Shown here one piece after another: positions 3,230-35,905 of a stretch of DNA of 51,560 nt. A program made the translations under genes and the position numbers. The DNA is taken from assembly GCA_028688055.1 (NCBI GenBank), contig JAQTYZ010000004.1, positions 99,021 through 150,580 of the forward strand. Reading direction: 5' to 3'. This stretch comes from Patescibacteria group bacterium. GTDB lineage: Bacteria > Patescibacteriota > Patescibacteriia > Buchananbacterales > UBA6539. Numbering within the stretch: position 1 is the stretch's first letter; every line of letters begins with the position of its first letter. Below the pieces are notes generated by a model, which ran no database searches, was not told the DNA's origin, and was given only the letters and a program-made list of their open reading frames with translations.

Positions 3230-4381
3230 ATGACAATAACCAAAAAACTTAAAATTGGAATTGTTTGTTATCCGACAGTCGGCGGGAGCGGCATCGTGGC
3301 CACTCAACTCGGTATTGCCTTAGCCAAACTTGGACATAAAATTCATTTTATCAGTTATCAACGACCTTTCCGCTTGCCAACCCAATCAAAAAATATTTAC
3401 TTTCATAAAGTACCAATTAACACTTACCAACTTTTCCGCTACCCGGACTACACCTTGCCGCTAGCCGTCACTATGACTGATGTCCATACCAAATATAAAT
3501 TAGACATTATGCACGTTCACTATGCCGTGCCCCATGCCACCGCGGCGTTATTGGCGAAACAAATAATTACCGACCACCAAAAGATTAAACCATTTAAAGT
3601 CATCACCACGCTCCACGGCACCGATATTACTTTAGTTGGCAATGACCAAAGTTTAAAGCCAGTAATTTGTTACTCCATTGGAAAATCAGACGGTATTACG
3701 GCGGTGTCAAAAAATTTGGCCACCGAAACAAAAAAGATTTTCTGTATCAATAATCCCATTGAAGTTATTTATAATTTTTATTCGCCAAAAAAAATAACCA
3801 AGTCACCGCAACTTATCCGTCGTGAACTAGGCCTAAACAAAAATACTTTTGTCATTAGTCACGCCTCCAACTTACGGCCCGTCAAACGAATTCCTGATTT
3901 ACTAAAAATATTTTCACAGGTTGAGAAAAAACATGATGCTAAATTGTTAATTTTGTCCGGTGGTGATTTTTCACCCTACTTGCCTTTAGCTAAAAAGTTA
4001 AAAATTGAGAAAAAAATAATTCTCAAACAAAACGTCGCTGACGTTGAAAATTATCTTAATGCTGCTGACTGCGGATTATATACCTCTGATCATGAAAGCT
4101 TTGGGATGAGTATTTTAGAGACCATGAGCTATGGTAAGCCGGTTTTAGCGACGCGCGCTGGCGGCGTGCCCGAAGTAATTACCAACCGACTTAATGGTTT
4201 GTTATATCAAGTCGGCGATATCAACGGTTTTACCTCTGGTATCGACGAACTAATTAATAATAAAAAATTATGGCAAAATATTTCCAGCGAGGGGAAAATT
4301 AAAGCCGAACATTATTTTTCAGCAGCTAAAATGGTAAAAAAATATTTAGACTACTACTCTAAAATCTTGGCCCAAAATTAA
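3230..4381 (+). CDS. bshA: N-acetyl-alpha-D-glucosaminyl L-malate synthase (GT4)
   Basis: KIGIVCYPTVGGSGIVAT.LG, HVHYAVPHA, TTLHGTDITLVG, H.SNLRPVKR, ESFG; start set at 3230, 1 nt after the bshB stop. Confidence 0.93.
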   Translation: MTITKKLKIGIVCYPTVGGSGIVATQLGIALAKLGHKIHFISYQRPFRLPTQSKNIYFHKVPINTYQLFRYPDYTLPLAVTMTDVHTKYKLDIMHVHYAVPHATAALLAKQIITDHQKIKPFKVITTLHGTDITLVGNDQSLKPVICYSIGKSDGITAVSKNLATETKKIFCINNPIEVIYNFYSPKKITKSPQLIRRELGLNKNTFVISHASNLRPVKRIPDLLKIFSQVEKKHDAKLLILSGGDFSPYLPLAKKLKIEKKIILKQNVADVENYLNAADCGLYTSDHESFGMSILETMSYGKPVLATRAGGVPEVITNRLNGLLYQVGDINGFTSGIDELINNKKLWQNISSEGKIKAEHYFSAAKMVKKYLDYYSKILAQN

Positions 4382-4544: not shown

Positions 4545-4632
4545 TATCTTGGTCAATCTGACCAAATAGTTATTGTGGAAATAAAGTCGAATTTCTACTA
4601 GCTAACTTAATTAACTTTATTTCTACATCATC

Positions 4633-4827
4633 ATGCAAGGAACAATCAAAAAGTTGACCGACAAAAACTTCGGTTTCATTAGCCAAGAAGGTGGAAAGGA
4701 TTTATTCTTTCACGCCAACGAGCTAGTCGGTGTCAGCTTCAGCGACTTAAGAGAAGGTGACGAAGTCACTTTTGAAGTCACTGACACCCCGAAGGGTCAA
4801 GCCGCTACGCAAGTAAAAAAAGCTTAA
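4633..4827 (+). CDS. csp: Cold-shock protein
   Basis: RNP1 FGFI and RNP2 LFFH, KG.QA..V. Confidence 0.95.
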   Translation: MQGTIKKLTDKNFGFISQEGGKDLFFHANELVGVSFSDLREGDEVTFEVTDTPKGQAATQVKKA

Positions 4828-34551: not shown

Positions 34552-34560
34552 AAAAATCAT

Positions 34561-34866
34561 ATGGAAAACGAACCAAGATTTGACCCTGATTTTCGAGCAA
34601 TACCAATGGCCGAAATTATCCTGCGAACGATTAAAGACGCTGGGCCCGAAGGACTATCCCTAACGCAAATTACTCAAGCCATCGACTTGGCGCAAAACCA
34701 ACGCGCTAAACAACAAGCCAAAACGGAACATGAATTTCCCAACACCATTGACCTGGGCGTACCTAATATCGAAATCGTCGAAGTAGTCTTAGACCAATTA
34801 GTTAAAAGTGGTCAAGTCGAGATCAAGGACGGACGCGTCCGAATAATTACCAACGAAAATAATTAA
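34561..34866 (+). CDS. Hypothetical protein, possible winged helix
   Basis: IILRTIKDAGPEGLSLTQI ... VVLDQLVKSGQVEIKDGRV; lies between two tRNAs. Confidence 0.7.
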   Translation: MENEPRFDPDFRAIPMAEIILRTIKDAGPEGLSLTQITQAIDLAQNQRAKQQAKTEHEFPNTIDLGVPNIEIVEVVLDQLVKSGQVEIKDGRVRIITNENN

Positions 34867-34867
34867 T

Positions 34868-34943
34868 GGGTGCATAGCTCAGTTGGTAGAGCAACTCCCT
34901 CTTAAGGAGATGGTCGGGGGTTCGAATCCCTCTGCGCCCACCA
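34868..34943 (+). tRNA. tRNA-Lys(CUU)
   Basis: Acceptor GGGTGCA/TGCGCCC, loop CTCTTAA, GTTCGAAT, encoded CCA. Confidence 0.95.
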
Positions 34944-35114
34944 AAGAAGTCTAATTGTCACACTAGTGGCAGATAGACTTCTTTTGATAAGATAAAAGAT
35001 TCGAACGGGCAGCGCTAGCGGCGAGCTGGCACAGCCGCCAGCGCTGCCCAGGGCAACGAGCCGTGACGCTATTTGAAGACACGGCGAGGCGGAAATCCCT
35101 CTGCGCCCACCAAA
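34925..35114 (+). repeat. 21-bp direct repeat of the tRNA-Lys 3' end flanking a structured spacer
   Basis: AATCCCTCTGCGCCCACCAAA at 34925-34945 and 35094-35114. Confidence 0.92.
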
Positions 35115-35160
35115 AAAACCACCTCGCTTCTGAGATGATTTTTTGCTATACTAAGATCGT

Positions 35161-35583
35161 ATGGCAACCGAGGCCGAAATCCAAAAAACCTTTAAAATTT
35201 CGCTGGAAGACGACAATCTTATTGTGGTCGAGCTATTGGGTAATGTCTCAACCGCTGCCGATAACGTTAAACAGGCCCAAATCATCAACCAAACATTTCA
35301 AAATATTTATCACAATGTTGAAAATTCGGCTTTTAAAACTTTGATTATTATGAGTGGCCTTGGCGGCGGTGCCCATTACCCTTCACCCCAAGCCAGACAA
35401 ATCTATCTTGATTTGCTCCGCAATGAAAAATTAAAAAAACTGGCCATCGTCGCCCCAAGCCCCTTGCTCCGAGCTATCATGAAATTTATTATTTCCGGCC
35501 GCGTTAAGGACAAGCCGCTTGAATTTTTTAACAGCCGTGACCAAGCCATTACTTGGCTCAACAGCGAAATCACTGAAGAATAA
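35161..35583 (+). CDS. STAS/SEC14 (SpoIIAA-like) domain protein
   Basis: KLAIV..SPLLRAIMKFI and FFNSRDQAITWL patterns; leaderless-type promoter. Confidence 0.7.
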   Translation: MATEAEIQKTFKISLEDDNLIVVELLGNVSTAADNVKQAQIINQTFQNIYHNVENSAFKTLIIMSGLGGGAHYPSPQARQIYLDLLRNEKLKKLAIVAPSPLLRAIMKFIISGRVKDKPLEFFNSRDQAITWLNSEITEE

Positions 35584-35586
35584 AAA

Positions 35587-35608
35587 TACCCCGCTAACTA
35601 GCGGGGTA
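35587..35608. terminator. Terminator between convergent genes
   Basis: TACCCCGCT-aact-AGCGGGGTA. Confidence 0.75.
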
Positions 35609-35626
35609 AAATTAAATCTTGAACCC

Positions 35627-35905
35627 TTAGCTCTTAAGAGCTTCTTTTAAATTCTTGCCGGCTTTAAATTTCGGCACGGTGACTGACGGGATATCAATTT
35701 TTTCCGACGGATTGCGCGGATTAACACCAATGCGCCCCTTGCGCGTTCTGGCGGAAAAAGCGCCAAAACCAGTTAAGGTAACTTCCTGGCCGGCTTTTAA
35801 TTTGTCGATAATGGTTTTGGTTAAAGTATCAATTACGTCTTCAACCTCTTTTTTTGAAACACCAACTTTGTTGGAAATCTCATCAATTAAGTCTGCCTTG
35901 TTCAT
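35627..35905 (-). CDS. hup: HU family DNA-binding protein (copy 2)
   Basis: MNKADLI, GFG.F, R.GR.G.NP, VPKFKAGK.LK; GGAGG SD. Confidence 0.95.
   Translation of the reverse strand: MNKADLIDEISNKVGVSKKEVEDVIDTLTKTIIDKLKAGQEVTLTGFGAFSARTRKGRIGVNPRNPSEKIDIPSVTVPKFKAGKNLKEALKS

Follow-up and report, generated by a model that had tools for sequence, protein, structure and literature searches.

Among the described systems closest to the element reported here are the cis-mobilisable elements (CIMEs), which are recombinase-less derivatives of integrative elements in tRNA genes, flanked by attachment (att) sites and mobilisable in cis (PMC5704250). We analysed a stretch of 51,560 nt from a Patescibacteria group bacterium (GenBank assembly GCA_028688055.1, contig JAQTYZ010000004.1, positions 99,021 to 150,580 of the forward strand; 'the window', whose numbering is used throughout), in which a tRNA-Lys(CTT) gene is followed by a short, structured cassette and a second copy of the tRNA 3' end. 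Like CIMEs and other integrative elements of tRNA genes, the cassette lies at the 3' end of the tRNA gene, is bounded by a direct repeat that starts in the T-loop, and leaves the tRNA intact; as with CIMEs, there are empty sites in relatives, tandem accretion at the same site and no recombinase of its own. Unlike CIMEs, the cassette is gene-less at ~170-250 bp, with no recognisable remains of a parent and no autonomous partner found; its conserved part is a multi-helix covarying fold; one core serves seven tRNA identities, with the arm rewritten each time; and it holds an inverted copy of the T-arm besides the direct copy.

A second comparison is with integron attC sites and the attachment site of the CTX phage, where a single strand folds into a stem that mimics a duplex site. 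Like sites of this type, the cassette has conserved structure, imperfect inverted arms and promoter-less tandem units, and its enzyme would be supplied in trans; this is a resemblance in its possible mode of working only and not membership. Unlike attC, it has no integron integrase or attI context, its target is a tRNA gene, its central part is conserved in sequence, and its arms misfit R''/R' (RYYYAAC / GTTRRRY) except for the GTT of the T-loop.

169 extra bp behind tRNA-Lys(CTT)

ARAGORN and Rfam place three tRNA genes in the window, among them the target gene of the cassette, tRNA-Lys(CTT) (34868-34943; ARAGORN call; Rfam RF00005, 70.2 bits). It lies on the + strand, as do the features of the cassette given below. 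Two exact copies of the 21-nt sequence AATCCCTCTGCGCCCACCAAA form a direct repeat (34925-34945 and 35094-35114), with a start-to-start spacing of 169 nt. The first, att-like copy begins at A58 of the T-loop and comprises the last 19 nt of tRNA-Lys, up to the CCA, plus AA. The 19-nt core of the repeat occurs twice in the window against an expectation of 0, and was absent from 100 of 100 shuffles. A terminator-like inverted repeat with 19-nt arms (AAAGAAGTCTAATTGTCAC / GTGGCAGATAGACTTCTTT, 34943-34984) follows the tRNA and runs into TTTT, ending at 34986; it would form the present end of the tRNA-Lys transcript. A terminator scan with simple rules made no call at 34943-34986, the loop and mismatches of the hairpin being outside those rules.

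A related Patescibacteria contig, L002, gives the cassette-free state of the locus. The gene after the element (35161-35583; DUF7793/STAS-like) has few homologues, all in Patescibacteria, and the contigs that carry them retain the order rnc - pilT-like ATPase - tRNAs - DUF7793 - HU - ymdB - rny. In L002, the DUF7793 protein is 65% identical, the tRNA-Arg and tRNA-Lys sequences are the same as those of the window, and the order is tRNA-Arg, 10 nt, tRNA-Lys and then directly AAAAATCACCTCGCGCTTGAGGTGTTTTTTTGTTATACTA...ATG. This last part is homologous to window 35113-35163, i.e. to the sequence after the second repeat copy, and it includes a homologue (L002 643-676) of the original tRNA-Lys terminator directly behind the tRNA. 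In the window, that terminator (CACCTC...GAGATG plus a T-run, 35115-35145) is shifted by 169 bp and the second repeat copy abuts the original downstream flank. The window therefore has 169 extra bp, made up of one repeat copy and 148 nt of new sequence, and the alignment of the two loci demonstrates an insertion of this size at the tRNA-Lys 3' end relative to L002. Since the hairpin at 34943-34986 is absent from the L002 empty site, this terminator arrived with the insertion. The element is absent from contigs L004-L007 as well.

A 7355-nt Logan unitig from a landfill metagenome (run X1) spans 34914-35700, including both repeat copies, with 0 differences, and a misassembly is therefore unlikely at this level; X1 is probably the source sample of the window, and its support is not independent of the assembly. 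In the assembled contigs of the DNA runs, which drop rare variants, there was no joint that skips the 169 nt. Between the repeat copies there is no open reading frame (ORF) of at least 50 aa wholly within the spacer. One GTG-started 93-aa frame (35063-35344) starts in the 3' part of the element and enters the next gene out of frame, and is taken as spurious.

An earlier note on this DNA, made from the letters alone, had described the duplicated tRNA end, each of the hairpins given here and below, and a spacer with no gene; all of these are present, and its details were accurate. It had also offered, as one of several readings, a tiny non-autonomous tRNA-targeting element, and had proposed comparing empty sites and searching for copies behind other tRNAs with the cognate 3' end. 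The empty site in L002, with tRNA-Lys directly before the original flank, and the recurrence described next both support that reading.

A family of cassettes behind seven tRNA identities

When public runs were aligned to the window, the 3' part of the element recurred elsewhere with other acceptor strands (e.g. ...GGAAATCCCTC-ACGTCCCACCA in run X2), and contigs of X2 and X5 matched 34975-35012 (about 87-92% identity) before reading a canonical AAGCGAGATATGAGCC... sequence. A scan of GTDB genomes with a window-specific 18-mer gave 14 hits, about the chance expectation, with one true relative: L015, a cassette in a Ca. Kerfeldbacteria genome. Scanning the JGI metagenomes with TTCGAACGGGCAGAAGCGA gave 51 loci, 48 of them cassettes and 3 chance hits in coding DNA. 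Because this collection was made with a single exact 19-mer, the breadth and taxonomic range of the family are underestimated.

The core shared across loci is GGGATTCGAA-CGGGCAG...CTGCCCAGGRCAA...GGCGGAAATCCC. In the consensus, the 5' half reads terminator, 10-25 nt, GGGATTCGAA, CGGGCAG, AAGCGAG, hairpin P3, GAGCG, hairpin P4 and GCG; the 3' half continues with CTGCCCAG, GRCAAsGA, hairpin P5, CGAGGCGG, AAATCCC and the tRNA 3' end. From left arm to right arm a cassette measures about 105-175 nt, and its core without the arms roughly 90-155 nt; in total, the gene-less unit is about 170-250 bp. A hairpin and T-run stand between tRNA and core at nearly every locus, and a terminator follows the right arm in most. 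A covariance model, R1, was built from 24 metagenomic cassettes with the window excluded. On the JGI loci, R1 gave 42 hits of 55-137 bits, the intact members scoring 80-137 bits. There are tandem cassettes in L053 and L055 (the second copy truncated), two R1-type cassettes in L043 (one after tRNA-Arg, one after tRNA-Lys), and additional copies of the tRNA end in L041 and L026.

For 30 sequence-distinct loci, ARAGORN found an upstream tRNA on the contig; in 26 of them it lies 44-65 nt upstream on the same strand. The tRNAs hosting cassettes are of at least seven identities (Gln, Ser, Tyr, Asn, Arg, Glu and Lys). The right arm is cognate, i.e. a copy of the end of the adjoining tRNA, at 21/30 loci. 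In every case the identity begins with A58 of the T-loop and extends for 14-66 nt (typically 18-21), usually to the tRNA end plus 0-4 nt. In the other 9/30 loci the right arm is decayed or non-cognate despite a conserved core. The left arm, GGGATTCGAAC, corresponds to the T-arm segment GTTCGAATCCC in reverse complement, and the two arms of the cassette form helix P1. CCA is found in the arm only where the adjoining tRNA gene encodes CCA; the arms of L030 and L053 include bases past the discriminator, and the inverted copy in L053 is 22 nt long and likewise includes genomic bases beyond the discriminator. Arms that lack CCA where the gene has none, and that include flanking bases, argue against copying of a mature tRNA.

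At the window locus, 56 nt separate tRNA-Lys from TTCGAA, which is within the family range, with the hairpin 34943-34984 in between; the right arm matches the tRNA-Lys end at 21/21 nt, the identity stopping exactly at A58. The earlier note had seen here a T-loop split by an insert of about 88 nt. Its right side, AATCCC..., is indeed a direct tRNA copy from A58, whereas its left side, GATTCGAA(C), is an inverted T-arm copy, which seemed a direct half of the T-loop because TTCGAA is palindromic.

Searches of catalogues gave no counterpart. Rfam 15, run on the window copy and 15 family loci, had matches at the gathering threshold only to tRNAs and, elsewhere, to one group I intron, with nothing at the element even at E <= 10. 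The core was absent from 2.9 million IMG/VR viral contigs (three patterns), 50,697 INPHARED phage records and 72,556 PLSDB plasmid records. No description of the cassette was found in the full-text literature, including by its literal motif, and no RNA run contained the window or L015 copy. These results establish a large, uncatalogued, gene-less family in Patescibacteria metagenomes, and one that is apparently undescribed.

A conserved, covarying fold

P1 (GGGAUU/AAUCCC) encloses P2 and the hairpins P3, P4 and P5, and about 35 unpaired bases inside it are conserved as well. We used RNAalifold on an alignment of 24 diverse members, the tested structure being P1, P2, a 2-bp helix and P4. RNAalifold recovers P2 (GGGCAG/CTGCCC, invariant) and P4. 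All 8 pairs of P4 have compensatory changes, e.g. CG 14 / UA 10 at one pair and UA 11 / AU 5 / GC 4 / CG 3 at another. Pair 7 of P1, where the helix enters the tRNA-specific stretch of the right arm, also covaries (AU 9, GU 4, GC 2, UA 2, CG 1). Paired cells amounted to 90.8% against 83.7% in shuffles, with 0/500 shuffles reaching the observed value; 49 cells had double changes where 17 were expected; and sliding the partners by 1-3 columns reduced pairing to 34-48%. On this structural model, the fold is under selection.

Folding favours the strand of the tRNA. The + strand folds better than the - strand in 33/38 cassettes (mean 4.1 kcal/mol, p = 2e-5), the window copy being among the five with a better-folding minus strand, and the alignment holds 17 G.U against 6 A.C pairs.

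The window copy as a probable deletion derivative

R1 gave a single hit in the 51.5 kb of the window on both strands, at 34994-35115 (+; 57 bits, E 1.6e-14, versus the 80-137 bits of intact members). Behind the terminator-like hairpin and a short A-rich spacer (34987-34997; placed by sequence and family comparison), the left arm, GATTCGAAC (34998-35006), contains GATTCGAA at 34998-35005; its place is set by the family alignment and the P1 pair counts. Next is a GC-rich 16-bp hairpin (35007-35022 / 35034-35049) with 15/16 pairs formed. By fold and family alignment this is P2 (GGGCAG/CTGCCC) continuing straight into a P4-like stem as one hairpin, 35007-35049, which the earlier note had listed as a long GC hairpin. 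Two junctions conserved in the family alignment, AGGGCAACGA (35050-35059; family consensus AGGRCAAsGA) and GAGGCGGA (35086-35093, the last part of the core), flank P5 (35060-35085), whose arms are GCCGTG (35060-35065) and CACGGC (35080-35085) and whose length varies across the family. The right arm, identical with the second repeat copy (35094-35114), consists of AATCCC (the 3' strand of P1), the rest of the tRNA-Lys 3' end, CCA and AA. G+C peaks at 0.67 over 35000-35099, against ~0.42 in the flanks, and the + strand fold of 34986-35114 has a z of -4.7.

In the R1 alignment, the window copy lacks the J2/3-P3-J3/4 module (AAGCGAG...hairpin...GAGCG) and has flagged non-standard pairs in P1. The left arm reads AAAGATT instead of GGGATT and only GATT/AATC pair, giving a closing stem of ~4 bp against the at least 6 bp expected of a family member. 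A groundwater run, X3, holds the window element exactly except for 48 extra nt at 35012/35013, and in X1 there is only one copy at >=80% identity. With the P3 module and most of P1 lost, the window copy is probably decaying and no longer mobile; judged from its sequence, it is probably a deletion derivative that is no longer active. Taken alone, the window thus offers a modest result, one decaying copy, and the interesting question is the mode of action of the family.

Search for partner genes

No recurrent integrase, transposase or reverse-transcriptase-like gene was found within 5 kb of 45 loci, and no tnpB, iscB, cas12k or tns near the cassettes. The sole ORF family in >4 loci was that of a small GIY-YIG protein, encoded immediately before the tRNA at 7 loci; it is a possible candidate for a trans-acting nuclease.

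Short ORFs (78-134 aa) of the GIY-YIG type (COG2827-like) directly adjoin the tRNA on its 5' side in L004 (3238-3650) and also in L005, and are found upstream of the cassette-bearing tRNA in L027, L031, L040, L046, L063 and L072; in L045 the ORF is ~2 kb downstream of the cassette. The ORF in L004 lies between two copies of a tRNA-Lys 5' fragment (GGGACGTTA ... GCTCAGTTGGTAGA), each split by a ~56-nt GC-rich hairpin, an arrangement that looks, from the sequence, like a 5'-side counterpart of the 3'-side cassettes. A 17.7-bit minus-strand match to the COG2827 RNA was put down to chance, there being no such match at the GIY-YIG locus L004.

Other candidates were also rejected. A T-loop intron or split tRNA would not fit a complete upstream tRNA with nothing tRNA-like before the left arm. 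Candidate motifs for hammerhead and twister cores, sought by eye, fall within the covarying P4 and have no support from Rfam.

Mode of action

We think it somewhat probable that the element is a non-autonomous integrative cassette that targets tRNA genes, has att-like flanks and brings its own terminator. In the mechanism we propose, a circular or permuted form would hold core, tRNA 3' end and terminator in that order, and would enter by site-specific recombination within the identity block from the T-loop to the 3' end, using an enzyme encoded elsewhere. The tRNA would keep a perfect 3' end and gain the cassette's 3' end and terminator, whilst its original 3' end and terminator would be displaced to behind the core. 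The selected fold might act as single-stranded DNA, the inverted and direct arms allowing one strand to form a stem that mimics the duplex target, or as RNA. The identity blocks of tRNA-targeting integrases commonly run from the T-loop or the anticodon loop to the 3' end. The tandem arrays are signs of repeated integration, and the lack of a recurrent enzyme gene is a sign of independence from local genes.

Several observations weigh against this scheme. Neither a recombinase nor a circular form nor an excision junction was detected. The repeats in L037 and L055 are 51 and 66 nt long and include locus-specific terminators, which is unexpected for a fixed att core; they would need re-integration at the same locus or another mechanism of duplication. 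The right arms of L015 and L028 are not cognate to the preceding tRNA, and the conserved cores next to worn or non-cognate arms in 9/30 loci argue that the core is selected for something besides integration. With a single copy in X1, recent spread in this genome is not indicated. The long repeats, the non-cognate arms and the conserved cores with decayed tails leave room for a resident RNA or for target-primed or template-switch insertion. It is also possible, though we hold it doubtful, that the cassette is a new protein-less mobile or RNA device confined to tRNA genes, in which a multi-helix core of ~100 nt would recognise the near-universal T-loop sequence through the GGGATTCGAAC arm and retarget by gaining an inverted and a direct copy of each tRNA end that it enters. 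Such a device would either be used by a host recombinase, as folded single-stranded DNA imitating its own target, or direct its own insertion as an RNA that serves as guide, ribozyme or template.

A resident non-coding RNA gene on the + strand is an explanation that we entertain tentatively. Its transcription would start at a promoter fused with the upstream terminator or come from read-through, and the duplicated end would be a part of the product and not a scar; mobility is not excluded by this. On the structural model the 5' arm of this RNA (GGGAUUCGAAC) could bind either the 3' arm of the same molecule or the T-loop/T-stem of tRNAs, and possible roles include a tRNA-binding regulator, a sponge, a processing decoy and a guide scaffold whose 3' tail matches a tRNA. 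The covarying helices with their about 35 conserved unpaired bases are consistent with such an RNA, as are the preference for folding on the tRNA's strand, the G.U excess (17 vs 6 A.C), the terminator behind the right arm at most loci, and the retention of the core where the right-arm tail has decayed (e.g. L043, 126 bits). However, a strong terminator and T-run lie directly upstream, with a spacer of only about 10-25 nt in which, judged by eye, there is no consistent -10 element; no RNA run has the window or L015 copy and there is no Rfam family; and residence alone leaves presence and absence between relatives, and the tandem arrays, unexplained. We regard as improbable a protein-less or RNA-templated self-propagation, in which a small ribozyme or template would recognise the T-loop via TCGAAC and insert by reverse splicing, target-primed reverse transcription or template switching; the duplication would then result from two nicks, one at a set place in the T-loop and one at a variable distance. 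The repeat does have a fixed left edge (A58) and a variable right edge (14-66 nt), as in target-primed insertion; as read from the sequence, a nick in the T-loop would leave the bottom strand with the end ...GGGATT-3', which is complementary to the right-arm AAUCCC and the same as the left arm; and no local protein gene is associated. Set against this, the arms copy genomic DNA and not mature tRNA (CCA-less arms; extra bases in L030 and L053), no reverse-transcriptase gene is linked to the cassettes, and the ~90-155 nt core is unlike any self-splicing or self-cleaving ribozyme in Rfam.

The remaining explanations fare worse. In many tRNA-integrating elements the repeat begins in the T-loop, and the attL/attR-like repeat here does so too, as it would in the collapsed scar of a large integrase-bearing island or prophage in tRNA-Lys, with 34946-35093 as the remains of both ends. 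This reading, one of those in the earlier note, is now largely unsupported and very unlikely: the same compact architecture with a conserved covarying core occurs at ~40 unrelated, gene-less loci, the spacer between tRNA and core is always tiny, there are no integrase fragments nearby, and the core is missing from viral contigs and from phage and plasmid records. A chance duplication, an assembly artefact or a fragment of a tRNA- or transfer-messenger RNA (tmRNA)-like gene can practically be dismissed. The exact spanning unitig, a repeat never met in shuffles, significant R1 membership and the covarying family refute the single unconserved occurrence or misassembly that the earlier note had allowed for. 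The tRNA-like RNA with its own CCA end that it had also suggested lacks support in that form: ARAGORN found no tmRNA or second tRNA in the element and Rfam had no match (E <= 10); the acceptor 3' strand has no 5' partner, and the CCA follows the neighbouring gene. A tmRNA or permuted tmRNA was rejected likewise, there being no acceptor 5' strand, T-arm or tag frame; the resemblance of GATTCGAACGGG to GGAUUCGACGGG, which we take to be a tmRNA segment, was a lead only.

Two further groups of known elements bear comparison. Like miniature inverted-repeat transposable elements (MITEs), repetitive extragenic palindromes and bacterial interspersed mosaic elements (REP/BIME), Correia elements and Rickettsia palindromic elements (RPE), the cassettes are small, gene-less and structured, have short terminal inverted repeats (GGGATT...AATCCC) and occupy many loci. 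Unlike MITEs, they are strictly behind tRNA genes, with a duplication that is variable (14-66 nt) rather than short and fixed, and the cassette is apparently single-copy in the metagenome of this genome (X1). Like TnpB/IscB omega RNAs and the homing guides of CRISPR-associated transposons, they have a scaffold of ~110 nt followed on its 3' side by ~20 nt identical to the tRNA gene, and, like the guides of tRNA-targeting transposons, they lie just downstream of tRNA genes. They differ in having no tnpB, iscB, cas12k or tns gene nearby and no Rfam omega-RNA match; moreover, P1 ties up the first 6-7 nt of what would be the guide, and the tail is decayed in 9/30 loci.

If the reading as an integrative cassette is true, these are among the smallest site-specific mobile units described (~170-250 bp, no gene), and they show how residence in an essential tRNA locus can be near-costless, because the element brings its own copy of the tRNA end and a terminator. 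A passive attachment site would not be expected to have a conserved, covarying fold in which about 35 unpaired bases are invariant; such a fold points to a folded-DNA recombination substrate or to an RNA activity in bacteria of the candidate phyla radiation (CPR). To our knowledge, the mobile elements and non-coding RNAs of CPR bacteria are almost unexplored. In CPR genomes the cassettes, with the partial tRNA copies that they contain, will mislead tRNA annotation and att-based island prediction, and R1 provides a sequence handle for finding the enzyme that moves them.

Variant cassettes and neighbours of the window locus

Some family loci depart from the canonical arrangement. At ~8790-8910 of L043, in a tandem arrangement with a canonical cassette, a different GC-rich core (GCCGACCCGACC...GGGGGAAGAG) stands within unchanged boundaries (GGATTCGAA...GAATCC and the 3' end of tRNA-Arg); the element type may be defined by its boundaries and not by one core. 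In L026 (7880-8640), a tRNA gene with a group I intron in its anticodon loop (Rfam 56.9 bits) has a cassette behind it and three copies in all of its 3' end. In L027, the tRNA-Gln end occurs a third time ~240-380 nt past the start of the cassette, together with the whole 110-nt spacer, ending GTGTGGATTCGAA, after which TGGGAAATAG is found in place of the core; from its sequence, this may be either a truncated cassette or a core-less left arm. A short palindrome of the type CCTGCCTACCGGCAGGCAGG occurs in or beside cassettes in L053 (~4630-4650), L054 (~3590-3640) and L057 (within P4), and also in a contig of run X2, ahead of window 35057, and may be a separate mini-hairpin repeat.

Upstream of tRNA-Lys in the window, a 101-aa ORF, P0001 (34561-34866), exactly fills the gap between tRNA-Arg and tRNA-Lys (34558-34867). 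It has marginal helix-turn-helix-like and PHROG matches only (E 0.004-0.2) and no informative family. Since the two tRNA genes are only 10 nt apart in L002, this would be a second difference by insertion or deletion at the same locus. In L006, whose locus is syntenic with the window, a foreign tRNA 3' fragment, GGTTCAAATCCTTTCGGGTGCGA, lies directly after tRNA-Arg (3866-3920), which on sequence grounds may be a further sign of an insertion hot spot at the tRNA-Arg/tRNA-Lys pair.

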